Part shown: one piece after another, positions 21,303 to 43,154 of the stretch
How positions within the stretch are numbered: position 1 is the stretch's first letter
Layout: each line of letters starts with the position of its first letter
Source of the DNA: a virus
Virus record (IMG/VR): IMGVR_UViG_3300044961_000667
Reading direction: 5' to 3' (one strand)
Length of the DNA stretch: 64,000 nucleotides
Translations under genes and position numbers: made by a program
The notes under the pieces: generated by a model
The model's database searches: none
The model's input: the letters and a program-made list of their open reading frames with translations, nothing else
What the model was told of the DNA's origin: nothing

Positions 21303-21332
21303 AATCTAGCCCAAGTCCTCCGCGTTCGTCAA
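21303..21332 (-). promoter_or_regulatory. sigma70-like promoter
   Basis: TTGACG-18-TAGATT. Confidence 0.75.
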
Positions 21333-32210: not shown

Positions 32211-32620
32211 ACGACGATGGGTTCTTTCAGCATGGCAGTTGGCACAAACAACCTCGCACTTCGCCAACTCCATTCTCACATCTTCCTCTGAACGGGCGTG
32301 GTTGACCATCCTCGACACGTCGTCTTGCTTCGTTCCCCTGACGTGATCAAACTGCATCACCCACGGCCCATACTGATGGCCACAGTCCGTACACGGCGTC
32401 GTGCTCTTGATCTCGTTGGCGATCTTGCGAAGCGTTTCACGCTTGATCGACTTGTACGCCCTGTTCTTGTCGACGTACTTCTGGTGATTGGAGCGGTAGT
32501 GCTTTCGCGAACCCTTCTGCATGCACACCCGACATCGCGAATGCCGCAGCGTCGGCTTCCTCTTCCAGTTGAAGTCGTCCTCTGACTTGAACCGTTCGCA
32601 TCCGGAGCACCACTTCTGAA

Positions 32621-32696
32621 CGCCCCCGGCGGGAATCGAACCCGCAACCCGTTCGCCTGTAGTCGGCGACAGCTCTGCCAGTTGAGCTACGGAAGC
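32621..32696 (-). tRNA. Intact tRNA-like gene with non-canonical loop GACUACA (central triplet CUA; identity undetermined)
   Basis: Cloverleaf with normal D and T arms; A33, C37, 3 extra nt. Confidence 0.75.
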
Positions 32697-32711
32697 ATCT
32701 TCCACATCATC

Positions 32712-32758
32712 TCCGTCCACCTGTAGTCGGCGGTTGCTCGCCTATGAGCTACGAGGGC
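32712..32758 (-). pseudogene. 5' part of split tRNA-like gene (same GACUACA loop)
   Basis: GCCCTCG TA GCTC ATAGGC GAGC AA CCGCC GACTACA GGTGG ACGG. Confidence 0.8.
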
Positions 32759-33046
32759 CTGTTCCAACCTGAGGAGATCGTAACTCCTGCAGGAGTTTCG
32801 TCAAGTGACTGACTGCGCCGGCTCCTTGCAGTCGATGCAGTAGCCGCACGAGCCGCACCGGTACTTCACCCAAACGCCCTGCACCTTCGACACCCCCGCC
32901 GAGCGTCCGTCCTCCTGGCGCGTGATGCCAGGCTTCTTGCACTGCGGGCAGATGCCTTGCTTCAGCTTCTCGTCGATCTGCTGACTCCATTCCTGGATGG
33001 CAGCGACAACGTCCTGAGGCGGCTCTTTCACTTCTCCTCCGTACCA

Positions 33047-33426
33047 TGGAGCTGCGGGGAATCGAACCCCGGTCCGAAAGCCTTCAGTCCTTCGACTCTA
33101 CGTGCGTAGCCGCTGTCACCGCGGCCGAGTCCTGCTGCCCGCTGGTCTTTCCCCGCATTCGCCGAGCGGACTGGGCGGGGGCAACTCCTGGGTGGGTTTC
33201 GCCTCGCCAGCTACGCAGGAGCGCCTCGCTGGTTCGACGGAGAGCTAAGACTTTCGGTCCGCTCTCAAGCCCTGATCAGGGCAACCGCTCACGCGGCTGC
33301 GAGCATCGGGGCCGCCTCGACGTTGTCGTTGGCGGTTGTGGTTTCTCACTGGGATTTACGAGCACAGCGAGCTGCTCGGCACGCATCTCAGGTCGTCTTT
33401 GCCCCCGTCGAATCCAGTTCAGCCCC
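33047..33426 (-). ncRNA. ssrA: tmRNA; tag peptide ANDNVEAAPMLAAA
   Basis: 5' GGGGCTGAACTGGATTCGAC, 3' GGTTCGATTCCCCGCAGCTCCA, G3-U70; tag frame 33333-33289. Confidence 0.95.
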
Positions 33427-33806
33427 GTTCACTGCTTCCTTCAAGCAACGGCGATAGGCGCCCGTGCCGAACATCCGGTCGGTGCGCCCAACGCAGGGAG
33501 TTGTGGTCCCCCGCATCGCCGTCCTCATCATCTCGCGCGTCGGTGTCGCCTGCACTTTTCGCACTGGCCCGTGCTGTCGAACACGCACAGCTCCTGATTC
33601 ACACCGCATCCCACGTACTGCGCGACCGAGTCGACGCGGAGCTGGGCTTCGTGGCCGCTCTCACGCGAGTCCGCTGCTCTCTGCGACTGCTCGTTCTGCG
33701 TCATGGGGGTGCGCCTTCTGTTCTTGGTCGAACTGACTGTCAAGATCATCAATGACACCAGTGGACAGTGTTCGTCAAGGGGAACCGGACAGCAGCGACA
33801 GTTTCT

Positions 33807-33872
33807 CGACCCGTCCAGGAGTCGAACCCAGCACCACGCCCTTAGAAGGGGCCGGCGGATCCATCACGGGCC
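33807..33872 (-). tRNA. tRNA-Arg(UCU), D arm reduced (66 nt)
   Basis: GCCC CTTCTAA GGGC; T arm and acceptor intact. Confidence 0.7.
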
Positions 33873-33885
33873 TCAACAACAACAG

Positions 33886-33970
33886 CGGAGCGCCCGAGAG
33901 TCGAACTCGGCTGACCCGTGAAGGTCGTCGCGTTAGCAGTGCGATGCCGTCCCACGCTGGCTCACGCTCC
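33886..33970 (-). tRNA. tRNA-Ser(GCU)
   Basis: Loop CTGCTAA, long V arm, G73. Confidence 0.9.
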
Positions 33971-33973
33971 ATG

Positions 33974-34061
33974 CGGAAAAGGCGAGAGTCGAACTCGCAG
34001 ACCGCCCGAAGACGATCGTCCGCTTTCCAAGCGGGTGGGCTCACCAGTGCCCAGCTTCTCC
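33974..34061 (-). tRNA. tRNA-Ser(GGA)
   Basis: Loop TTGGAAA, long V arm. Confidence 0.9.
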
Positions 34062-34064
34062 ATG

Positions 34065-34153
34065 CGGAGCGGGTCCGAGTCGAACGGACAGCCCGCCTTT
34101 CGACGAGCAAGCGCTTTCGAGACGCTCTGACTTGCCTGTGTGCAAACCGCTCC
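34065..34153 (-). tRNA. tRNA-Ser(CGA)
   Basis: Loop CTCGAAA, long V arm. Confidence 0.9.
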
Positions 34154-34249
34154 AGAAACACCCTCAGATGACCGCCTGAGGGGCGCGGGGGCCTGTTGGC
34201 CGAGATGCCCCTAGCTGTCGCCAGTTCGTGAGCGTCTCGGGACGGCTTG

Positions 34250-34336
34250 CGGAAGACGGAGGACTCGAACCCCACACCCACTCGGGGTGCCGACCGCTTT
34301 CAAGGCGGGCCAGCGTCCATCACTGGTTCATCTTCC
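34250..34336 (-). tRNA. tRNA-Ser(UGA)
   Basis: Loop CTTGAAA, long V arm. Confidence 0.9.
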
Positions 34337-34337
34337 A

Positions 34338-34667
34338 TCACTGCGATCGCGGCTGATCGGCGTTCCAGACGGAGCGGCCCATCGCTCCCTCATCGGCCTC
34401 AGCGTTCTTCAACATCGAGTAGTAGTCCGGTCGCTCCTTCAGGTGCGCCCAGGCGATCTTCCCGATGTCGAGCAGGTCGTCAACCACGTCGGTCTCCGGG
34501 TCGACGTCATGCTCCGACTCAACCCCGAGACCGGCCGCGAACTCTCCGAGGTCGACCTGGCTCCAGTCGATCCCCAGCTGGTCGCCAACCCACTTCGCCA
34601 GCTCAGGGCTCCATGCCGGCGCCTCGCCGACCTCTTCCTTCAGCTGCCTGACGAGCTTCCTGAGCAT
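34338..34667 (-). CDS. DUF5661-like protein
   Basis: GIDW...EFAAGLGVESEH...KIAWAHLKERPDYYSML. Confidence 0.75.
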   Translation of the reverse strand: MLRKLVRQLKEEVGEAPAWSPELAKWVGDQLGIDWSQVDLGEFAAGLGVESEHDVDPETDVVDDLLDIGKIAWAHLKERPDYYSMLKNAEADEGAMGRSVWNADQPRSQ

Positions 34668-34707
34668 GCGGTGGCCTCCGGGCGCACAGTACACCCAGAG
34701 GCCACCC

Positions 34708-35250
34708 TCAGTCTTCCAGCTCGGTGTTCCAGTACGCCACCGAGGCGAGCCACTGCTTCCACGGCTCGGGCATGCCCTTCTTCCAGGTGAAGGTGAGCCG
34801 CACCGACTCGGGCAACGACTTCGGCTTCACCGGCACCTGCAGGAGCTTCATGCCTGCCTGCGCTGGCGTCCGACCGCCCTTCTTCTGGTTGCAGGGCGTG
34901 CACGACACCACGATGTTCTCCCACGTCGTGTGGCCGCCCTGCGTGCGCGGGACGACGTGGTCGTACGTGAAGTCGTGCCTGGGCACCTTCGCCGAGCAGT
35001 ACTGGCACTTGCCCTTGTCTCGCGTGAAGACGTTCTCGCGACTGAACTTGATCGCCTTCTTCTTGCCGCGGATCGCCCGGAGGAACCGGATCACCGACGG
35101 CACCTTGAACTCCAACGTCATCGAGCGGACGGTCTTGTCCTCGTACTCCTCGACGACTTCCACCTTCTCCTCCCAGAGGAGGGTGATCGCCCGTTGCCAG
35201 CTCACGCGGGCAACCGGGGTGTAGCCAACATCGAGCACCAGCGTTTCCAC
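34708..35250 (-). CDS. HNH endonuclease (McrA-like)
   Basis: TLVLD..Y.P...WQRAI...PSVIR...SRENVFTRD...CQYC...DHVVPR.QGG.TTWEN...C..CN. Confidence 0.9.
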   Translation of the reverse strand: METLVLDVGYTPVARVSWQRAITLLWEEKVEVVEEYEDKTVRSMTLEFKVPSVIRFLRAIRGKKKAIKFSRENVFTRDKGKCQYCSAKVPRHDFTYDHVVPRTQGGHTTWENIVVSCTPCNQKKGGRTPAQAGMKLLQVPVKPKSLPESVRLTFTWKKGMPEPWKQWLASVAYWNTELED

Positions 35251-35288
35251 GTTGCCCGTCCTTTCTGCGGCCTTCGCCGCGGTGAGTG

Positions 35289-35373
35289 TAGTCCCGGCCG
35301 GACTCGAACCGGCACGGCCTTTGTGGCCACTGGGGTTTGAGCCCAGCGCGTCTACCGACTCCGCCACGGGACC
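35289..35373 (-). tRNA. tRNA-Leu(CAA)
   Basis: Loop CTCAAAC, long V arm. Confidence 0.9.
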
Positions 35374-35378
35374 ATCTG

Positions 35379-35467
35379 TGCTCGGGGCGAGACTCGAACT
35401 CGCATGAGGCTTTCGCCCCACCGGCTTCTGAGGCCGGCGTGTCTACCGAAGGTTCCACCACCCGAGC
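35379..35467 (-). tRNA. tRNA-Leu(CAG)
   Basis: Loop CTCAGAA. Confidence 0.9.
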
Positions 35468-35478
35468 ATGCACTTCAG

Positions 35479-35565
35479 TGGTCCGGGCGAGAGTCGAACT
35501 CGCATGATCTTTCGATCGGCAGGCTCTCAACCTGCTGTGTCTACCGGAGGTTCCACCACCGGACC
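35479..35565 (-). tRNA. tRNA-Leu(GAG)
   Basis: Loop TTGAGAG. Confidence 0.9.
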
Positions 35566-35569
35566 AAAG

Positions 35570-35642
35570 TACCCGCTCTCGGAATCGAACCGAGCCCTCC
35601 GCCTTGTGAAAACGGCGCTCTCACCAGTTGAGCTACGCGGGC
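35570..35642 (-). tRNA. tRNA-Val(CAC)
   Basis: Loop TTCACAA. Confidence 0.85.
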
Positions 35643-35645
35643 ATG

Positions 35646-35717
35646 TCGTGAGCCTGGGAGTCGAACCCAGCTGGGCGGATTATGAGACCGCTGCCTTCCC
35701 TCGATGGCTTGCTCACG
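35646..35717 (-). tRNA. tRNA-Met/Ile2(CAU)
   Basis: Loop CTCATAA. Confidence 0.85.
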
Positions 35718-35720
35718 GAG

Positions 35721-35793
35721 TAGCAGGGGCTGGGATCGAACCAGCGTTCTCCAGGTTATGAGCCTGGCGAGATGACCTCTTCTCCACCCTGCA
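35721..35793 (-). tRNA. tRNA-fMet-like (CAU)
   Basis: Loop CTCATAA; unpaired 1:72. Confidence 0.85.
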
Positions 35794-35794
35794 G

Positions 35795-35868
35795 TACTCC
35801 CGGAGGGACTCGAACCCCCAGCCTCTTCGTTCGTAGCGAAGCGATCTGATCCGTTGATCTACGGGAGC
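35795..35868 (-). tRNA. tRNA-Arg(ACG)
   Basis: Loop CTACGAA. Confidence 0.9.
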
Positions 35869-35880
35869 ATCAAACAACAG

Positions 35881-35954
35881 CGGTCTCGGCGGGACTCGAA
35901 CCCGCGGCCTTTCGCTTCGGAGGCGAACGCTCTCATCCACTGAGCTACGAGACC
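35881..35954 (-). tRNA. tRNA-Arg(CCG)
   Basis: Loop CTCCGAA. Confidence 0.9.
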
Positions 35955-35956
35955 AG

Positions 35957-36029
35957 CGTTCCCGGAGGGACTCGAACCCCCGACTTCTCCGTTAGGACCG
36001 GAGCACTCTTCCAACTGAGCTACGGGAAC
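35957..36029 (-). tRNA. tRNA-Arg(CCU)
   Basis: Loop GTCCTAA. Confidence 0.85.
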
Positions 36030-36035
36030 ATCCTG

Positions 36036-36106
<71 letters not shown>

Positions 36107-36505
36107 TCAACCAACCACGTACTTCTCAGCCAACTTCACACCGGACTTCTGACCGTTCTTGGCAGGCTCGACCCGAAGCTGCCCGCCAACGGCCCCAACC
36201 TCCTCGACCGGGACCAGATACACCGCATCCAACTCTGGGCAGTGGACGCCGAAGAACTCGACCTCACCGCGGTACGACTTTCTCCCAGTCCCTCGGTGAG
36301 CCGAGTTGCTGCTGGTGTCGAAGACAACCGCTCCATTCTTGAGCCGCCCAGTCTTGCACTGCACTCGCTGGAACCCGGCATCAGTGTCGATCACCAGGTC
36401 GTAGCGCTGGTTCTCTCCAATCGGGAGCAGCACCGTCCTCCCGGTCTTGAGCAACGCCGCCATCACCGCACCCTCTGTTCTCGTCCCCTGCGCCTTGGTG
36501 TTCAT
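36107..36505 (-). mobile_element. PD-(D/E)XK endonuclease (group I intron-associated type)
   Basis: G...E......LLP.GENQRYDLVID...RVQCKTGR...Y.GEVEFF. Confidence 0.85.
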
Positions 36506-36520
36506 GCTCCACATCTACCA

Positions 36521-36567
36521 CACCGCTCGGACACCAGCCGAGTGCTCTGCCTTCGAGCTGCGGGGGC
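36521..36567 (-). pseudogene. 5' fragment of tRNA-Thr(GGU), no T arm
   Basis: GCCCCCG CA GCTC GAAGGCA GAGC A CTCGG CTGGTGT CCGAG CGGTG. Confidence 0.85.
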
Positions 36568-36571
36568 GCTG

Positions 36572-36644
36572 TGGATCTGGCCGGACTCGAACCGGCAACC
36601 TTCTGCGTGCAAAGCAGCCGCTCTCCCATTGGAGCTACAGACCC
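36572..36644 (-). tRNA. tRNA-Ala(UGC)
   Basis: Loop TTTGCAC, G3-U70. Confidence 0.9.
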
Positions 36645-36649
36645 TTCAG

Positions 36650-36722
36650 TGGAACCGGCGGGACTTGAACCCGCCACCTCTCGCATGCGAAGCGAGCGCT
36701 CTCCCAGATGAGCTACGGCCCC
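36650..36722 (-). tRNA. tRNA-Ala(CGC)
   Basis: Loop TTCGCAT, G3-U70. Confidence 0.9.
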
Positions 36723-36727
36723 AGGTG

Positions 36728-36798
36728 TGCGCGAGCAGGGAGTCGAACCCTGTCGTCTCCCGCGTCGGGGGAGTGCTCTACCGGTGAGCTACACGCGC
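36728..36798 (-). tRNA. tRNA-Val(GAC), C33
   Basis: Loop CCGACGC. Confidence 0.85.
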
Positions 36799-36887
36799 AT
36801 GGGCAGGCGGTGCTTTCGCCGAGCTGCCAGCAGTCACCACGTTCGTGACCCCGGCCCTGCTCGGTAGACTGCCACCTCTCCTGCTTG

Positions 36888-36960
36888 TGGACCCGGCGGG
36901 GATCGAACCCGCTACCTCTCGCATGCCATGCGAGCGCTCTCCCAAGTGAGCTACAGGCCC
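36888..36960 (-). tRNA. tRNA-Ala(GGC)
   Basis: Loop ATGGCAT, G3-U70. Confidence 0.9.
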
Positions 36961-37052
36961 TAAGCGAGGCAGTTCGTAACGCTGCCTGCCCGGCTTTCCA
37001 CCGGCGCGGGTTGATCAGACCCACGAGACTTGCCCGGAGCGACCGGGCCATG

Positions 37053-37125
37053 TGCCGTCCCTCGGAATCGAACCGAGATCCTCCGCTCTTCAGGCGGGTG
37101 CATGGACCACCACTGCCAAGACGGC
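37053..37125 (-). tRNA. tRNA-Phe(GAA)
   Basis: Loop CTGAAGA. Confidence 0.9.
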
Positions 37126-37134
37126 GTACTTCAG

Positions 37135-37206
37135 CGGACCCGAACGGAATCGAACCGTCCTCGCCGGCGTGACAGGCCGGTCGCCTCACCAGATGCGTAC
37201 GGATCC
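37135..37206 (-). tRNA. tRNA-Asp(GUC)
   Basis: Loop CTGTCAC, G73. Confidence 0.9.
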
Positions 37207-37211
37207 AACAG

Positions 37212-37294
37212 GGCGACTGGAGAGAATCGAACTCTCACTGAGCTTTCGCTCGCGGGGTCACAACCCGCTGGGAACCCATTTCCCATCAGCCGCC
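37212..37294 (-). tRNA. tRNA-His(GUG) with long variable arm
   Basis: Loop TTGTGAC; G-1:C73; V arm GAGC-GAAA-GCTC. Confidence 0.85.
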
Positions 37295-37302
37295 AGAAGA
37301 AA

Positions 37303-37422
37303 TCTGCTCCACCCGAGTGAGGAAGGCATGAAACGGGTTTGAACCGTCTGGTCGATTTAGCAGATCGACTGATCACCAAGATCAGTAGTGCGTGTGAGCC
37401 ATCCTCGGCCGGGTGGTGCAGA
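37303..37422 (-). ncRNA. tRNA-mimic RNA (D, anticodon and T arms on a long imperfect stem)
   Basis: GATC TTGGT GATC / GTCGAT CTGCTAA ATCGAC / ACGG TTCAAAC CCGT inside TCTGC..CCACCCG..GAGGA terminal stem. Confidence 0.65.
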
Positions 37423-37423
37423 G

Positions 37424-37495
37424 TCCGCCGCAGTGGAATCGAACCACTTGCCTCTCGCTTATCAGGCGAGTGCTCTTCCAGTGAGCTACCGGCGG
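37424..37495 (-). tRNA. tRNA-Ile(GAU)
   Basis: Loop CTGATAA. Confidence 0.9.
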
Positions 37496-37504
37496 GCACG
37501 TCAG

Positions 37505-37578
37505 TCAGGGTGGCTGGGATCGAACCAGCGACCTCCTGCATCCGAAGCAGGCGCGCTACCAGGCTGCGCTACACCCTG
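37505..37578 (-). tRNA. tRNA-Pro(CGG)
   Basis: Loop TTCGGAT. Confidence 0.9.
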
Positions 37579-37588
37579 TTGAGTCAAG

Positions 37589-37625
37589 TCAGGTCGGCTG
37601 GGATCGAACCAGCGATCTCCTGCAT
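37589..37625 (-). pseudogene. 3' half of split tRNA-Pro(GGG)
   Basis: AT GCAGG AGATC GCTGG TTCGATC CCAGC CGACCTG A. Confidence 0.9.
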
Positions 37626-38035
37626 CACCAGACGTGGTCACTGGCCAGCAGGATGTTCTTCTTGGCCCCATTCGCGGGGGCCTCCAATCTCACATGCAGG
37701 ATCGACTTCCCCTGGAACTCCTCAGGCAGGAAGGCCGTCACCACGTCCATCTCAGGCAGATACACCAGAAGCAGGTCAACCTCCCCGACCTCATACTTCT
37801 TGAACGACTTGTTGCTCGGTCCCACCCACGTCCTCAGAGCCACAGTCGCCACGCCGGACGAATGAGACGACTTGCCGCCTCCATACTTCGCTTGGGCCCG
37901 GATCAACCTAACACCATCATCCAGAACCAGATCGTACCTGGCATCGGTTGTGGGCCGACTGACGACAAACCCCTTCTCAATCGCCCTCTGCTGCGCCTTC
38001 AGCGATGCCACTTCACCCTTCTGCCTGGTGTCCAC
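37625..38035 (-). mobile_element. PD-(D/E)XK endonuclease inside split tRNA-Pro
   Basis: KGE......GFVVSRP...RYDLVLD...RAQAK...Y...EVDLLLVY. Confidence 0.85.
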
Positions 38036-38066
38036 TTCTCTTGCGTACCACACAGGAGAACATCTG

Positions 38067-38138
38067 TCGAAGAGACTGGACTCGAACCAGCATCCTCACG
38101 GCCCCCAGCCGTGCGCTCCACCATTGAGCTACTCCTCG
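38067..38138 (-). tRNA. tRNA-Pro(GGG), intact copy nested inside the split gene
   Basis: Loop CTGGGGG. Confidence 0.9.
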
Positions 38139-38143
38139 TCACG

Positions 38144-38178
38144 CCCGAGCAGGCGCGGTACCACTCCGCTACGACCTG
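38144..38178 (-). pseudogene. 5' half of split tRNA-Pro(GGG)
   Basis: CAGGTCG TA GCGG AGTGGTA CCGC G CCTGC TCGGG; pairs perfectly with the 3' half. Confidence 0.9.
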
Positions 38179-38182
38179 AAAG

Positions 38183-38254
38183 TCTGGAAGGCGGGGATCG
38201 AACCCGCGACCTCTCGCGTCCAAGGCGAGCGCCCTACCGCTGGACTACTTCCAG
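38183..38254 (-). tRNA. tRNA-Pro(UGG)
   Basis: Loop CTTGGAC. Confidence 0.9.
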
Positions 38255-38438
38255 TTGTGCAATCGATTGCGTTCAAAACTGTGCAGTGCGGACTGGCGGT
38301 TTGCACCCGCTGCACCGCATTGTCGGCCTGGCCTCAATAGGCCGCACGGTCCCACGCCGTCGAACGCCAGGACCTGCACCAACCACCGCCATGTTCGACC
38401 TGCCAAGCGGTGCCCGTTCATGCCGGGATGCTGCACAG

Positions 38439-38510
38439 TACCCCGTACGAGAATCGAACTCGTTTCGCTCGCTTGAAGGGCGAGGGGCCTAACCAATGGC
38501 CGAACGGGGC
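38439..38510 (-). tRNA. tRNA-Glu(UUC), C33, intact copy downstream of HNH
   Basis: CTCGC CCTTCAA GCGAG. Confidence 0.85.
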
Positions 38511-38845
38511 TTCTCTGCTCGATCATGCGTCCTCTGCCGATGACAGTTGGCGCAGACCACTTCACATTTCTCGATCTCGGCTACGACCTTCTCAGGTCCG
38601 ACACCGTGCCTCTTGAACTGCCCCAGGCTGAACTCCTTCCGACCCCTGACGTGATCAAAGTCCATCACCCATGGCGGATAGGCGACACCGCAGTCCGCGC
38701 ACGGCCTGGACTTGGCTTTGTCGATGATCGCCTTGATCGTCTCTTTGTAGGCCGCTGCCGCTCTGATGTACGAGATCTTGTTCTTCTCGTAGTGCCTGCG
38801 GCTGTACTCGGCCTGCTTCGACTTCGACGGCTCTCTGAGCGGCAT
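38489..38845 (-). mobile_element. HNH endonuclease, paralog of 32178-32705
   Basis: PCADCG...VMDFDHVRG...KCEVVCANCHRQRT; last codons overlap tRNA-Glu. Confidence 0.9.
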
Positions 38846-38872
38846 TCTTCGTCATACCACTTGACGAACCTT

Positions 38873-38924
38873 TCGTCACTCCACCTTGAAAGGGTGTCGG
38901 CCTCACCTGAAGCACCAACGGGGC
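38873..38924 (-). pseudogene. 5' fragment of tRNA-Glu(UUC)
   Basis: GCCCCGT...CACC CTTTCAA GGTG, then AGTG ACGA and breaks off. Confidence 0.8.
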
Positions 38925-38929
38925 TGAAG

Positions 38930-39000
38930 TACCGCGTACGGGTGTCGAACCCGTCTCACTGGGCTGAGAACCCAGGGACCTCCCGGAAGTCGAACGCGGC
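38930..39000 (-). tRNA. tRNA-Glu(CUC)
   Basis: Loop TTCTCAG. Confidence 0.9.
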
Positions 39001-39006
39001 TTGAAG

Positions 39007-39079
39007 AGGCGGAGGCGGGAGTCGAACCCGCTCGATGTCGGTTTTGCAGACCGATGCCTTCCCAGTTGGCTACTCCGCC
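39007..39079 (-). tRNA. tRNA-Cys(GCA)
   Basis: Loop CTGCAAA, U73. Confidence 0.9.
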
Positions 39080-39101
39080 AGGGAAAGACGAGACTGTGCA
39101 C

Positions 39102-39458
39102 ATGAAGCGCGTGCTGTGCCTTGATGACGACGACATGGTGGCCCGGCTCATCGCCGAGGTGGTCGAGTTCTGCGGACACGAGCCCGTTCGAGAGAGCGAC
39201 CCGCTGAAGGCTTCCTCGGACCACCTCCACGACCGGAAGATCGCTGCGGTGCTCACCGACTACATGATGCCTCGCCTCGATGGCGTCGACGTTCTGGTGG
39301 TCTGGCAGGAGTCTCGACCCGAGGTGCGCCGAGTGCTGATCACCGCGGCCCCGAACGAGCCGGCGGTGAAAGAGGCCCTCCGCACCGGCGTCGCTCAGAT
39401 GGTGATCGCTAAGCCTCCGACGATCGCCGACATCAAGATGGCCCTGGCCTGGCTCTGA
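39102..39458 (+). CDS. Single-domain response regulator (CheY-like receiver)
   Basis: VLCLDDD, TDYMMPRLDG, LITA, IAKP. Confidence 0.9.
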   Translation: MKRVLCLDDDDMVARLIAEVVEFCGHEPVRESDPLKASSDHLHDRKIAAVLTDYMMPRLDGVDVLVVWQESRPEVRRVLITAAPNEPAVKEALRTGVAQMVIAKPPTIADIKMALAWL

Positions 39459-39459
39459 G

Positions 39460-40023
39460 CTACCGCTTCTTCCTCGCCAGTCGCTCCTCCAGCTGCTGAA
39501 CCGACATCTGGATGGAGTCGTTGATCGACCGCATCATGTCCTGCCGGAGCTTGTACTCCAGCTCCTGCAGCTTCTTGTCGGAGGCGTCCTTCGACTCCTT
39601 CTCGCGCTGGCGGTAGTACTCACCCTGTTTCTCGATGCGCTGGTCCACCGCCTGCCGGATCTCCGAGACCGTTCCCTTCATGGCCTCGATGGCCGACAGC
39701 ACCTGCTTCATCTCGGTCTGAACGTTGCCGACCGACTTGTCGATACCGGCCAGGGCGTCGCTCTGCTCGTCGAACTTGTCGTCGTGCTCGTCGAGCCGCT
39801 CTTCGGTCTTCTGCTTGTCCTTGTCCTCGCGGTCGACCGTCCGCGAGCCCAGCCACTTGACGAAGCCAACGACGGCTCCGATCAACTGGGTGACGACTGC
39901 TGCTCCGACCAGCAAGTACAGCCCGGTCAGCCCGTCACCTGCTGGCGCTGGCGGTGGGGTTGCTGCTGCGGCTCCTGCCGCCGCCGCCGCCGCCGGGCCC
40001 GCCGCCAAGATCAACAGGTTCAA
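39460..40023 (-). CDS. Single-TM coiled-coil membrane protein
   Basis: Hydrophobic segment followed by heptad repeats. Confidence 0.7.
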   Translation of the reverse strand: MNLLILAAGPAAAAAAGAAAATPPPAPAGDGLTGLYLLVGAAVVTQLIGAVVGFVKWLGSRTVDREDKDKQKTEERLDEHDDKFDEQSDALAGIDKSVGNVQTEMKQVLSAIEAMKGTVSEIRQAVDQRIEKQGEYYRQREKESKDASDKKLQELEYKLRQDMMRSINDSIQMSVQQLEERLARKKR

Positions 40024-40026
40024 GAA

Positions 40027-40383
40027 CTACTCCTTGCTCGACAGATCGTCGTCGTCGTCGGGCTCTTCAGAGGGCACCGCCGACACCGGAGTCGCTGGCG
40101 GGAGGTTCACCTGCAGCTTGGCCGCAATGGCGTCCACCACCTTCGACGTGTGCCGGCTTTCCATCTGCATCGACATCATCAGCTTCTCGCCTCGGAGCGT
40201 GCGCTCGTCGACATGCTTCACGGCGGTCTTCAGTGCCGCCAGGTCCTCGCCGAAGCCGGCCATTTTGGACCTCATCTCGTGCATGTCCTCTTCGAGCTTT
40301 GCCACTCGCGAGGCCAGGCTGATGGCCGTCGGCTTCCGCTTTCTTGGGGCCGTACGGAGGCCCCTCCCTCTGGTGTCACGCAA
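40027..40383 (-). CDS. Coiled-coil hypothetical protein
   Basis: ORF with acidic tail. Confidence 0.65.
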   Translation of the reverse strand: MRDTRGRGLRTAPRKRKPTAISLASRVAKLEEDMHEMRSKMAGFGEDLAALKTAVKHVDERTLRGEKLMMSMQMESRHTSKVVDAIAAKLQVNLPPATPVSAVPSEEPDDDDDLSSKE

Positions 40384-40492
40384 AGTCGCTCTCCGAAGAA
40401 GCGGTCCACGGTCGTGGTTCTCTCACGGCCTGCTGTTGGTTGACTGCTCCATCTTTCGCCCTCTTCTGGGCATCCGTCAACTGTCACTGATG

Positions 40493-40567
40493 CGTACCCT
40501 CTCGGAATCGAACCGAGCACCGTCGGCTTAACAGGCCGCTGCTATCAACCAGACCAGCTCAGGGCAC
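40493..40567 (-). tRNA. tRNA-Asn(GUU)
   Basis: Loop CTGTTAA, G73. Confidence 0.85.
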
Positions 40568-40573
40568 ATCGTA

Positions 40574-40644
40574 CTGGGGAGGAAGGGATCGAACCTTCTC
40601 CGTCGGCTTCAGAGACCGCTGCGCTACCCTTGCGCCACTCCCCA
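40574..40644 (-). tRNA. tRNA-Gln(CUG)
   Basis: Loop CTCTGAA, U1-A72. Confidence 0.9.
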
Positions 40645-40656
40645 ATGTCTTTCGCT

Positions 40657-40722
40657 CAGGGGCCCTGGGAATCGAACCCAGCTCGTCGGCTTCAAAGGCC
40701 GACTCACTCCCTGAGTACCCCT
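40657..40722 (-). tRNA. tRNA-Gln(UUG), miniature D arm (66 nt)
   Basis: Loop CTTTGAA; D arm CTCA-GGGAG-TGAG. Confidence 0.7.
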
Positions 40723-40727
40723 CCATG

Positions 40728-40799
40728 AGCGGGTGGCGAGGATCGAACTCGCGCATCCTGGGTTGGAAGCCCAGAGCCTTTCCGCTTGGCTACACCCGC
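40728..40799 (-). tRNA. tRNA-Gly(UCC)
   Basis: Loop CTTCCAA, U73. Confidence 0.9.
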
Positions 40800-40802
40800 A
40801 TG

Positions 40803-40873
40803 TACCGCCGCTGGGGATCGAACCCAGTCCCTCCGCTTAAAAGGCGGTTGCTCTACCCTTGAGCTACGACGGC
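40803..40873 (-). tRNA. tRNA-Lys(UUU)
   Basis: Loop CTTTTAA. Confidence 0.9.
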
Positions 40874-40912
40874 GCGTGGACCTGCGCCGTCGCGTTTCAT
40901 CTTCGTCTTCAT
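40853..40912 (-). CDS. Candidate Lys-rich regulatory mini-ORF MKTKMKRDGAGPRAVVAQG
   Basis: AAGGAG-6 nt-ATG; runs into tRNA-Lys(UUU). Confidence 0.55.
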   Translation of the reverse strand: MKTKMKRDGAGPRAVVAQG

Positions 40913-40930
40913 CGTCGTCTCCTTGTCGAG

Positions 40931-41018
40931 TGGTGGGAAGGCTCGGAGTCGAGCCGAGCTGGGACGCAATGCCACCCGCTTTACAGGCGGGCCACGAGCC
41001 CTACGTGTCTACCTTCCC
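40931..41018 (-). tRNA. tRNA-Tyr(GUA)
   Basis: Loop CTGTAAA, V arm, encoded CCA. Confidence 0.9.
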
Positions 41019-41021
41019 ATG

Positions 41022-41092
41022 AGCGGCATCCGGGAATCGAACCCGGTTCAGTGGCCTGGCAGACCACGGCCCAACCAATAGACCAATGCCGC
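41022..41092 (-). tRNA. tRNA-Gly(GCC)
   Basis: Loop CTGCCAG, U73. Confidence 0.9.
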
Positions 41093-41174
41093 ATACGGCT
41101 TTGTCGCTGACGGCCGCGCAGATCCTCGTGCGGAATGCACGAAGGACTGAACGTCTGCCGGCGACAGAAGCCAG

Positions 41175-41245
41175 TGGGCCCTGAGGGGATCGAACCCTCT
41201 CCTGACGCTTAAGAGGCGCCTGCTCTACCCTTGAGCTAAGGACCC
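41175..41245 (-). tRNA. tRNA-Lys(CUU)
   Basis: Loop CTCTTAA. Confidence 0.9.
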
Positions 41246-41295
41246 AGATTCGGCCAGCCCGACTAGACGTCAGACAGGTGGCCGAACTGTCGCTG

Positions 41296-41316
41296 CTATC
41301 CAGTTTTCAGAGAACA
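41296..41316 (-). promoter_or_regulatory. rrn-type boxA-like antitermination site
   Basis: TGTTCTCTGAAAACTGGATAG. Confidence 0.6.
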
Positions 41317-41325
41317 GAACTGCGA

Positions 41326-41399
41326 AGCACCAGGTCGGGCTCGAACCGACGACCTGCGGTTTACGAAACCGCTGCTGCTACCTGCTGAGCTACTGGTGC
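41326..41399 (-). tRNA. tRNA-Thr(CGU)
   Basis: Loop TTCGTAA. Confidence 0.9.
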
Positions 41400-41403
41400 A
41401 CTG

Positions 41404-41477
41404 CACGGCGAGCAGGAGTCGAACCTGCAGCGTCGGGTTTTGGAGGCCCGTTCCCTTCCCGTTGGGGACTTCGCCGT
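41404..41477 (-). tRNA. tRNA-Trp(CCA)
   Basis: Loop CTCCAAA, G73. Confidence 0.9.
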
Positions 41478-41539
41478 ATACCGTTGTTCCTTTCCTTTTG
41501 ACGAAACATCCTCTCGAAGACTGACCTGCGGTGGTGCAG

Positions 41540-41580
41540 AAAAGCGAAAGGCCGGGACCCTTTTGGGGTGCCCGGCCTCC
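41540..41580 (-). terminator. Intrinsic terminator in tRNA-operon leader (attenuator candidate)
   Basis: AGGCCGGG(C)ACCC-CAAAA-GGGTCCCGGCCT followed by TTCGCTTTT. Confidence 0.75.
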
Positions 41581-41605
41581 GTGAGCGATCCAATGTGCTA
41601 CTGGA

Positions 41606-41776
41606 TCAGGTTCTCATGGAGCCGGGCCGTCGGTGGTCGCTGGTACCCAGATTCTGCTCGGGCTGATAGGCGACCACGCTTTCGACGGACCAAAGGCACG
41701 AACGCAAAAACGCCGGTCGAGCGGCCATGGCCGCCCCGGCGATTCGCTTCGTCAGCGCTTTGGTTGAGGTCGACAT
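41606..41776 (-). CDS. Candidate leader peptide (56 aa, all 20 amino acids)
   Basis: AAGGAG at 41794-41789; GTG 41785 or ATG 41776; stop 25 nt before the terminator. Confidence 0.6.
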   Translation of the reverse strand: MSTSTKALTKRIAGAAMAARPAFLRSCLWSVESVVAYQPEQNLGTSDHRRPGSMRT

Positions 41777-41804
41777 CGAAAGCACGTGCTCCTTGATGTC
41801 CAGC

Positions 41805-41834
41805 AGAGTACCCACCTGACGAATTCGCCGTCAA
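41805..41834 (-). promoter_or_regulatory. sigma70-like promoter of the tRNA operon
   Basis: TTGACG-18-TACTCT. Confidence 0.7.
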
Positions 41835-41856
41835 GCACCTGACGACGATTCTTCGA

Positions 41857-42792
41857 TCAGTACCAGCCCGCGGGGTTCAACGTCGGGTTGTTCTCGAACG
41901 GGTACTGCTCACCGCCACCCTCGTCGTCATCCTGCCAACCAGGAGCGCCCTGTTCCATCTCCGGGTCGGACTCGATGCTTCGACGAACTTCCTTCTCCAT
42001 GAAGTCGGCGATCACCGCCATCATCGCCTCGTCGTCTTCAGCTCCCTGCATCGCGCTCACGAGCGAGCCCTCGTCCGAGTCGGCCTCGACCAGCATCTGG
42101 CCGTGGAGCTGGAACGCCTCGACGAAGTCGATCTTCTTCAGGAAGCTCTGCCACGCATCCCTCGCGTAGTCGGCGACCTTCTCCTTGAACTTGCCGGTGC
42201 CGATGTCTCGACCGCGGTAGAAACCCTTGAGAAAGGTCCTCGCGATCGACTTCGCGATTCCTCCGGCCACGTCGGAGACCTTCTTCTTCTCCTCGGGAGA
42301 CGGCTTCTTCCCGGCCGCCGCCCCCTTGAGCGCCTTGGTCGCTTCCTTGGCTGCTTCGGGATTCTTGGCGACAGCCTTGGCAGCGGCCTTCTTCGCGCGG
42401 CCCTTGCCCTTCGCGACCTTCGCCTGACCAGGGGCTTTCTTCGGGGCCGGCGCCTCGGCATCACCCTTCGGCTTGTCGACCTTGGTGGCCGGCTGCCCCT
42501 TCGGCTTCTTCGCGGAACCACCCTTCTCGGGCACCTTCTCCCAGTCGCCCTCCTTCGTCTTGACGAAGGTGCCCGCCTTGCGCTTCCGCTTCTCACCCGG
42601 CTTGGCGACGTTGGTGCCCTGGCCCTTGCCGGCGGCAGTCTTCGCCACCGACGGCTTGCCCACCGCGGTTCCACCCTTCTTCTGCAGCTGCGAGATCGGG
42701 ATGAGCACCGGAGACGTCTTCACGTCGCGCGGGTACGGGCCCTTCTCAACGAGGGAACGCATCTGCTCCACGAGTGAAGAGAGGCTGCTCAC
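41857..42792 (-). CDS. Lys/Ala-rich protein with acidic C-terminus (possible internal head protein)
   Basis: AGGAG RBS; LVE motifs; histone-H1-like composition. Confidence 0.7.
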   Translation of the reverse strand: MSSLSSLVEQMRSLVEKGPYPRDVKTSPVLIPISQLQKKGGTAVGKPSVAKTAAGKGQGTNVAKPGEKRKRKAGTFVKTKEGDWEKVPEKGGSAKKPKGQPATKVDKPKGDAEAPAPKKAPGQAKVAKGKGRAKKAAAKAVAKNPEAAKEATKALKGAAAGKKPSPEEKKKVSDVAGGIAKSIARTFLKGFYRGRDIGTGKFKEKVADYARDAWQSFLKKIDFVEAFQLHGQMLVEADSDEGSLVSAMQGAEDDEAMMAVIADFMEKEVRRSIESDPEMEQGAPGWQDDDEGGGEQYPFENNPTLNPAGWY

Positions 42793-42800
42793 GTCGACTC

Positions 42801-43154
42801 CTACGCGCTCTTGCGGGCGCGGAAGATCGCGGTGCGCGCCAGCTCGTCCATCCACGATGCGTCCGCGAGCACCGACTGGATCGAATCAGTCAACTGACCC
42901 ATGTACTCGTTCACGCGAGGCACGGTGATCTCCTCGGGCCGCCCCTGGTACTCGCGAGCAAGGTGCGCGGCCAGGTGATCGGCGAGCAGCTCTCGCAACA
43001 TCACGCGGGCGTCTGCCTTCAGCGCCTCGTTCTCATCGTCGTGGAACGGGTCCTCGTCAGTCTCCCCGGCGTCTTCCACCCCCGCCGACAGGTGATCGAG
43101 CGTGGCCTGCATCTCGTCGAGGTCTTCGAGGATCTTCTCGGCACTGACTCCCAT
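42801..43154 (-). CDS. Acidic hypothetical protein
   Basis: GAGGTGG RBS; palindrome directly upstream. Confidence 0.7.
   Translation of the reverse strand: MGVSAEKILEDLDEMQATLDHLSAGVEDAGETDEDPFHDDENEALKADARVMLRELLADHLAAHLAREYQGRPEEITVPRVNEYMGQLTDSIQSVLADASWMDELARTAIFRARKSA

Follow-up and report, generated by a model that had tools for sequence, protein, structure and literature searches.

What might a short open reading frame containing every one of the twenty amino acids be doing immediately ahead of a large set of phage transfer RNA (tRNA) genes? The question is raised by a stretch of 64,000 nucleotides (nt) from IMG/VR virus record IMGVR_UViG_3300044961_000667, the whole of which is referred to here as the window. 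An array of 38 tRNA genes and one transfer-messenger RNA (tmRNA) gene, with homing-endonuclease genes interspersed, occupies positions 32620-41477, and the unit considered here fills the gap, on the minus strand, between the stop of a gene encoding a 332-residue protein (41857) and the start of the first array gene, tRNA-Trp (41477). Our answer, to which we assign a probability of about 0.6, is that the unit at 41836-41538 is a conserved array-head leader that likely works as a ribosome-dependent transcription attenuator testing the decoding of all 20 amino acids. Its parts are listed below in order of transcription, L053, L037 and L051 being related loci from metagenomes.

41829-41836, minus strand: -35 region, TTGACG inside GCTTGAC, the latter identical in the window, L053, L037 and L051
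41805-41810, minus strand: -10 box TACTCT, 18 nt past the -35 box; none of the 4 lineages departs from its T, A and final T
41789-41794, minus strand: Shine-Dalgarno-like box AAGGAG, 12 nt 5' of the ATG, recognised from the sequence
41606-41776, minus strand: leader frame, 56 sense codons closed by TGA, in which 37 distinct codons and all 20 amino acids occur, read from the sequence
41705-41740, minus strand: candidate polymerase pause site lying within the leader frame, a GC-rich hairpin with five U 3' of it (terminator scan, -24 kcal/mol)
41613-41627, minus strand: antiterminator 5' arm, codons 50-54, from folding; its conserved CCCGGC core duplicates the terminator 3' arm
41586-41608, minus strand: middle hairpin of 9 base pairs (bp), starting with the stop codon, from folding
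41570-41585, minus strand: antiterminator 3' arm, the shared segment, overlapping the terminator 5' arm, from folding and pair counts
41550-41576, minus strand: terminator hairpin, -23.7 to -25.0 kcal/mol by RNAfold
41538-41549, minus strand: U-rich interrupted tract 3' of the terminator, seen in the sequence; similar interrupted tracts occur in the relatives
41403-41477, minus strand: tRNA-Trp(CCA), first gene of the array (ARAGORN and Rfam)

Along the minus strand, TTGACG, TACTCT, AAGGAG, the ATG, the 56 codons with their TGA, the 9-bp hairpin, the GC-rich hairpin and the interrupted U tract thus follow one another, the ATG lying some 23 nt past the predicted transcript start and the terminator 67 nt before tRNA-Trp. 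An earlier, sequence-only reading of this DNA had proposed a promoter, a ribosome-binding site and a 56-codon frame using all 20 amino acids and 37 codons, followed by an intrinsic terminator before the first tRNA. Each of these is present, the frame at 41776-41606 and the terminator at 41576-41550 (about -24 to -25 kcal/mol) with its U-rich tract. Motifs of the leader-promoter type number five in the 64-kilobase window, all of them on the minus strand and none inside the tRNA array. The conserved start, frame and composition suggest that the first 170 nt of the RNA are translated.

The same reading had claimed that the last codons of the frame can pair with a segment that includes the 5' arm of the terminator, giving two mutually exclusive structures. 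Folding supports both parts of this claim. The minimum free energy (MFE) structure of 41635-41565 is a single long hairpin (-35.1 kcal/mol, z -4.9, with none of 200 shuffles as good) in which precisely the proposed segments, 41627-41613 and 41585-41570, are paired and the 9-bp middle hairpin is enclosed. When the 3' arm of the terminator is added, the terminator together with the inner part of the long hairpin is slightly favoured, and the antiterminator and terminator are therefore alternatives of similar energy. Among five distinct lineages the antiterminator ranges from -27.5 to -36.1 kcal/mol, compared with -22.4 to -26.9 kcal/mol for the terminator hairpin alone, and in all five it is transcribed before the terminator. 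In nascent-RNA folding the shared arm pairs upstream before the terminator 3' arm exists (4 of 4 lineages). A 30-nt mask around the stop codon lets the terminator form, again in 4 of 4 lineages; a ribosome mask at codons 10-30 leaves the antiterminator in place in the nascent RNA of each. The stop codon of the window leader falls 4 nt past the antiterminator 5' arm, and those of the relatives fall inside it. The hairpin internal to the frame does not pair with the antiterminator 5' arm, and a small hairpin of 4 bp, capped by a purine tetraloop, persists at the same codons in the relatives.

The relatives come from a metagenome scan by a pattern derived from two tRNA-Lys genes, which gave 124 loci. 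Arrays in the same gene order, headed by tRNA-Trp, are present in L053, L014, L037, L018 and L051, and these represent four distinct lineages, since L037 differs little from L018. The tRNAs of the five loci share 70-85% identity with those of the window, their upstream genes are unrelated, and blastn of these loci gives no match to the window leader itself. The relatives keep GCTTGAC, a spacing of 17-18 nt, TAnnnT and a conserved ATG context, with purine-rich boxes 10-12 nt 5' of the ATG in L053, L037 and L051. There follows an open frame of 44-53 codons, showing in-frame length changes and ending with a stop inside the CCCGGC-containing arm; beyond it come a middle hairpin whose sequence is unrelated, then the terminator, then tRNA-Trp. 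A terminator-like hairpin of -22 to -27 kcal/mol with a U-rich tract is found in every lineage; in the window, L053 and L037 it stops 42-67 nt short of tRNA-Trp. The gene upstream of the L037 leader promoter is closed by a terminator of its own.

Placement between promoter and tRNA, a frame that ends at or in the competing arm, the layout as a whole, amino-acid completeness and breadth of codons are thus all kept in the relatives. The sequence-only reading had staked itself on a conserved architecture, and the relatives supply it, with promoter, start, open frame and stop in the antiterminator arm all retained. It had also looked to covarying stems, and pairing is indeed maintained through changes on both sides. 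In the antiterminator alignment 82% of cells are paired, 5 of the 16 pairs are changed on both sides, and the covariation score exceeds those of 500 out of 500 shuffles and of every slid control; in the terminator alignment 97% of cells are paired. Given five distinct rows and an invariant GC core, these pairing statistics are support rather than proof.

Searches elsewhere returned no further relatives from cultured phages (blastn, megablast, and tblastn with a neighbouring protein of 603 residues; only tRNA-Thr look-alikes were found), from viral_contigs (three neighbouring or leader proteins, two DNA patterns and the L053 peptide) or from genome_contigs (L037 peptide), and the upstream 332-residue protein has near-identical copies only. 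A profile search of a protein database added seven peptides, P0004-P0010, bringing the leader family to at least 12. Within it, N, D and P are invariant and W, A, Y and L nearly so. At L051 (880-1248) a gene for an HNH endonuclease is inserted between the attenuator terminator and tRNA-Trp, a further case of endonuclease genes colonising these arrays.

All 20 amino acids are present in 10 of the 11 full-length distinct peptides of the family, which are 45-56 residues long, and also in the partial, 5'-truncated L014. For any one peptide the probability of completeness by chance is 0.6-3.4% given the phage proteome composition, and 1.1-3.8% of real gene windows are complete. For the 56 residues of the window leader the corresponding figures are 3.4% and 3.8% (real 56-residue windows), so that this copy alone is weak evidence; the case becomes strong through the relatives and through codon diversity. 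No other small predicted gene in the window reaches completeness (0 of 21). Single copies are the usual state of the types C, D, F, H, I, N, W and Y in the leaders. Since related sequences share ancestry, identical aligned residues were held fixed along a minimum spanning tree and only the remainder redrawn. The joint chance over the tree edges is then 10^-5.9 under the proteome composition and 10^-5.3 under the pooled composition of the leaders. In P0006, P0008, P0009 and P0010 the types absent from conserved positions are present elsewhere in the peptide, and the window leader regains 11 such types.

The codons, too, are unusually diverse. The 37 distinct codons of the window leader engage 32 of the 37 phage tRNA species, CTT and AGA being the only leader codons without a phage tRNA, and none of 9,483 gene windows of 56 codons reaches either value (maxima of 36 codons and 29 tRNA species). 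The relatives have 33-37 distinct codons in frames of 43-53 codons, counts reached by none of approximately 9,600-10,100 gene windows for three of them and by 0.02% for L051. The codon diversity and completeness that the sequence-only reading noticed in the window thus extend to its relatives. Distinct codons also exceed those obtained by synonymous resampling of the leaders' own peptides (p of 0.05, 0.008, 0.012, 0.018 and <0.0002), as does the number of tRNA species engaged (p of 0.03 for the window and 0.0008 for L018).

Natural variation was assessed by comparing contigs from DNA and RNA libraries of near-identical strains. Among at least five such strains there is no variant site in the 171-nt frame, compared with 9 in 444 nt of the adjoining protein gene. 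The sole variant of the leader, at 41592, lies in the middle hairpin, where it converts an A-U pair to a mismatch, and is present in contigs of five runs (X8, X11, X12, X16 and X18). Contigs from RNA libraries cover the leader in four runs from three studies (X11, 40858-43068; X16, 41589-41824; X17, 41624-41886; X18, 41521-41688), bearing in mind that these contigs carry no information on transcript ends, strand or level and that DNA may be present.

A scan for short frames ahead of arrays in all the metagenome loci reveals leaders of the same layout and unlike sequence. They include L020/L050 (41 codons), L058, L055 and L012 (52-70 codons), L001, L041 and L002 (69-75 codons, with GTG or ATG start) and L040 (41 codons, at a locus of 39% GC); the layout is seen also in L044, L008 and L062, and twice in L069. 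Their terminators have other arms (GCCGCC, GGCCCGGAT and others), and each time a matching copy is found at the stop-codon region. The leader was taken as the shortest ATG frame of at least 40 codons, or as the GTG frame for L001 and L041, which have no such ATG; a rule taking the first start after a stop was dropped because it over-extends frames through the promoter. The terminators of the window and L058 were entered by hand, the scan having picked the internal hairpin in the former and missed that of the latter. Among the 17 leaders counted, from which L014 (truncated) and L018 and L050 (duplicates) are excluded, 11 are complete, compared with 0.64 expected from proteome composition or 1.45 from uniform codons. 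The distance from the stop to the outer pair of the terminator is 25-37 nt in all 15 leaders measured (28 nt in the window), and in 10 of 16 the best complement to the terminator 5' arm is centred between -19 and +10 nt of the stop. In 13 of 15 no same-strand tRNA lies upstream in the locus. In 9 of 15 the end of the terminator and the first tRNA called by ARAGORN are 10-52 nt apart, so that another promoter would not fit between them.

Two of these loci show further peculiarities. L069 (1-900), to be considered together with L062 (minus strand, before 3883), holds two paralogous leader-terminator units, ahead of tRNA-Gln and of Tyr-Lys-Asn-Glu-His respectively. The first codons of both L069 leaders specify Lys, His, Leu, Tyr, Asn and Glu, among which are all five amino acids of the second unit's tRNAs; the two have 19 and 12-15 types. 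This suggests that incomplete leaders of the L069 type are matched to sub-arrays and not to the full set. In L020 (3840-3990), and likewise in L012 (minus strand, before 1756), the interval from the terminator to the first ARAGORN tRNA contains a tRNA-like stretch, unreported by that program, whose variable arm is long and whose anticodon loop reads GTA, so that the true first tRNA is probably nearer to the terminator than the listed 178-200 nt.

Taken as an attenuator, the leader would operate in the following way. The long hairpin would be the first fold adopted by the nascent RNA, and a leader left untranslated, or on which the ribosome had stalled, would allow read-through into the tRNA genes. 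A ribosome arriving at the stop codon during synthesis of the following 40-60 nt would sit on the 5' arm and melt the middle hairpin. The terminator would then form between the shared arm and the 3' arm, and transcription would end at the U tract. A hungry codon within approximately the first 45 codons would hold the ribosome back, leaving the antiterminator intact and letting the polymerase run on into tRNA-Trp and the array. The frame-internal hairpin with its U run (41740-41705), and the tetraloop hairpin of the relatives, might pause the polymerase while the ribosome catches up, although this is a guess. Since every amino acid and 32 of 37 tRNA species are sampled, the whole array would be transcribed more strongly whenever almost any charged tRNA ran short. 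Such feedback would supply tRNAs when decoding falters, for example after loss of host tRNAs.

We would give even odds to a broader proposition, that large phage tRNA arrays are subject to 'omnivalent' attenuation, in which selection keeps leaders complete and furnished with codons for nearly every phage tRNA species, so that the array is expressed on demand. The trigger might be, for example, the degradation of host tRNAs during infection or their cleavage by anticodon nucleases, and the unlike leaders of several phage lineages would then follow one design.

Several observations weigh against the attenuator reading. The -10 box matches the Escherichia coli consensus at only 3 of 6 positions and is thus weak, the 12-nt spacing between the Shine-Dalgarno-like box and the ATG is long, the terminator stem has an internal mismatch as well as its interrupted U tract, and a generic consensus scanner called neither the leader promoter nor the terminator. 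Equilibrium folding of the full-length free RNA favours the terminator in 3 of 4 lineages, so that the switch would have to be kinetic and, as with attenuators already known, be settled while the RNA is still being made. The nascent shared arm still finds other upstream MFE partners when the stop region is masked, making the masking test non-discriminating. The single Asp and His codons of the window leader lie within its last 11 codons, where a stalled ribosome would mask part of the antiterminator 5' arm; the leader should accordingly be expected to respond at 'almost any codon' rather than 'every codon'. L051 lacks Cys, and only Cys, and 6 of the 17 leaders are incomplete, with 19 types (L051 and the first unit of L069), 18 (L002, L008 and L062) or 12 (the second unit of L069). 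Weak codon bias may partly explain the codon diversity (GC content at third codon positions, GC3, is 0.75 against about 0.85 in genes, and 0.63-0.75 across the leaders), and the codon usage of the window served as a stand-in for that of the relatives. The X18 contig crosses the terminator, representing either read-through or DNA. Finally, 48 of 72 loosely defined array starts, many of them gaps within arrays, have no terminator-like hairpin within 330 nt, and the leader design is not universal among phage arrays.

Of the other explanations, the closest retains the geometry in full and has the ribosome-dependent attenuator gauge overall translation capacity (ribosome availability, ribosome-polymerase coupling or inhibitors), composition being secondary. 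It has precedent in attenuators of the upstream open reading frame (uORF) type that answer many translation inhibitors, according to the available parts of the reports on topAI/toiL (PMC12121999) and vmlR (PMC9226507), and it accommodates the leaders of the same layout with 12-19 types. Such a gauge would need no special composition, yet completeness survives heavy divergence, single-copy types that are lost reappear elsewhere, and the synonymous codons cover more tRNA species than expected; we therefore regard it as rather unlikely. A clearly improbable account makes the frame a gene for an ordinary small phage protein, with the hairpin as its terminator and the tRNAs transcribed by leak-through or from other promoters. 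The peptide does show some positional conservation, is called as a protein in database gene predictions and is drawn by AlphaFold2 as one helix. That model, based on a 12-row alignment, has a mean predicted local distance difference test score (pLDDT) of only 59 and a predicted template modelling score (pTM) of 0.18, and neither Pfam nor PHROGs assigns the peptide to a family. An ordinary protein would also leave unexplained the completeness in 10 of 11 peptides, the relocated single-copy residues, the extreme codon diversity and a stop always in or beside the arm competing with the terminator. The room for a promoter before the first tRNA is too small, and the array contains no promoter of the leader type.

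It could be, too, that the two conformers are real but that the switch is set by a protein, by an RNA such as tRNA, or by kinetics giving a constant leak, the frame being incidental. The structures are conserved irrespective of translation, and terminator and antiterminator are nearly equal in full-length energy, as this account would have it. What makes it highly improbable is that the frame stays open despite in-frame length changes, the ATG context is conserved and the stop is locked to the 5' arm, while the composition and codon statistics would be senseless for an untranslated RNA. Moreover, Rfam, T-box included, gives no match within 41478-41860 at E values up to 1, and elsewhere in the window finds only tRNA, tmRNA and chance matches. 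A random open frame beside an ordinary terminator would have a 3-4% chance of containing all 20 amino acids in 56 residues were the window considered alone; with the unit kept in four other lineages, the design recurring in unlike leaders and a joint chance of 10^-5.3 to 10^-5.9, the probability that remains for coincidence is very small.

The preferred reading, an attenuator testing the decoding of all 20 amino acids, can be compared with several known systems. Four features of a leader-peptide attenuator are present: a predicted translatable 5' frame, a predicted intrinsic terminator, an alternative hairpin that excludes it and a frame end placed where a terminating ribosome would mask the antiterminator. 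Classical leader-peptide attenuators have clustered codons for the end-product amino acid, and their 1:2 hairpin brings about termination when the leader is untranslated. Like trpL, hisL, pheL, thrL and the multivalent ilvL, the phage leader has a promoter-proximal frame and competing hairpins between which the position of the ribosome would decide, and its shared segment is duplicated in the manner of classical regions 2 and 4. Unlike them, it has no runs of regulatory codons, each amino acid being present and many only once, and it precedes tRNAs where they regulate biosynthetic enzymes. It also appears to lack a clear region 1:2 anti-antiterminator, so that the untranslated state is predicted to give read-through and not super-attenuation. 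T-box riboswitches, found ahead of synthetase and amino-acid genes, are sensors of tRNA charging that act by antitermination; they bind uncharged tRNA directly and need no translation. They resemble the proposed phage leader in sensing charging and in antitermination, and differ from it in their direct tRNA binding and independence of translation.

The closest published analogue appears to be the whiB7/wblC leader of mycobacteria and other Actinobacteria, in which a short frame of broad composition is combined with an antiterminator and a terminator. According to the available part of the report on whiB7 (PMC10274678), stalling in its uORF leads to read-through and finished translation to termination. 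The Mycobacterium smegmatis uORF contains 19 of the 20 amino acids, a single Trp codon being enough to sense lack of Trp, and a screen gave matches tied to 18 of 20 amino acids, sensing following the composition of the frame. Loss of the uORF start codon results in high basal read-through, and this default-on state is the behaviour predicted for the phage leader. The whiB7 uORF thus shows that such stall-and-read-through logic works in cells. The differences are that whiB7 leaders regulate a transcription-factor gene of the bacterial chromosome, the phage leader preceding tRNA genes, and that the whiB7 frame is enriched in alanine and variable in content, that of Mycobacterium tuberculosis lacking several amino acids; completeness as a selected trait is not reported in the available part of that account. 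The phage leader would work like the whiB7/wblC family but is not a member of it, its downstream genes being phage tRNAs; no sequence relation between the two was seen, no comparison aimed at one having been made. In the toiL-topAI (PMC12121999) and vmlR (PMC9226507) leaders, too, stalling in a short frame switches on downstream genes; there the stimulus is antibiotics acting at particular codons, the mechanism involves Rho or occlusion of the ribosome-binding site, the targets are protein genes, and the portions of these papers to hand do not describe selection for a complete amino-acid set.

Neither leader-peptide attenuation nor the broad-spectrum uORF sensor is, then, new. A search of the full-text literature, subscription journals lying outside its scope, returned no account of a leader of this kind ahead of tRNA genes or phage tRNA arrays. 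The large tRNA sets of phages have long called for an explanation, and the reasons proposed, as given in the available parts of two papers, include codon compensation, replacement of lost host tRNAs and escape from tRNA-cutting defences (PMC10264068, PMC11555353). If the attenuator reading is true, decoding performance itself regulates tRNA supply, and the signal that the phage senses can be named. Leader-peptide attenuation, so far a matter of one to three amino acids and of protein genes, would take in all twenty and reach tRNA genes as well, and the unit would constitute a compact natural reporter of any aminoacyl-tRNA shortage.

As regards the wider setting, the phage is uncultured and GC-rich (61-67%), nearly all genes of the window lie on the minus strand, and virion genes, tail-fibre-like ones included, are upstream of the leader. 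Within the array, Rfam finds an extra tRNA missed by ARAGORN at 35479-35565 (minus strand). Towards its far end ARAGORN places the tmRNA (33047-33426, minus strand) and a tRNA with the amber-reading CTA anticodon (32620-32697, minus strand). On the opposite strand, a gene for a response-regulator receiver domain lies within the array (39054-39458, plus strand; Pfam PF00072, E 3.9e-13). Promoter-like sites at 21332, 11005 and 9960 (minus strand) resemble one another over a longer motif around TTGACGAAC and in a -10 box of the TAG type; they may belong to a phage promoter family distinct from the leader promoter.

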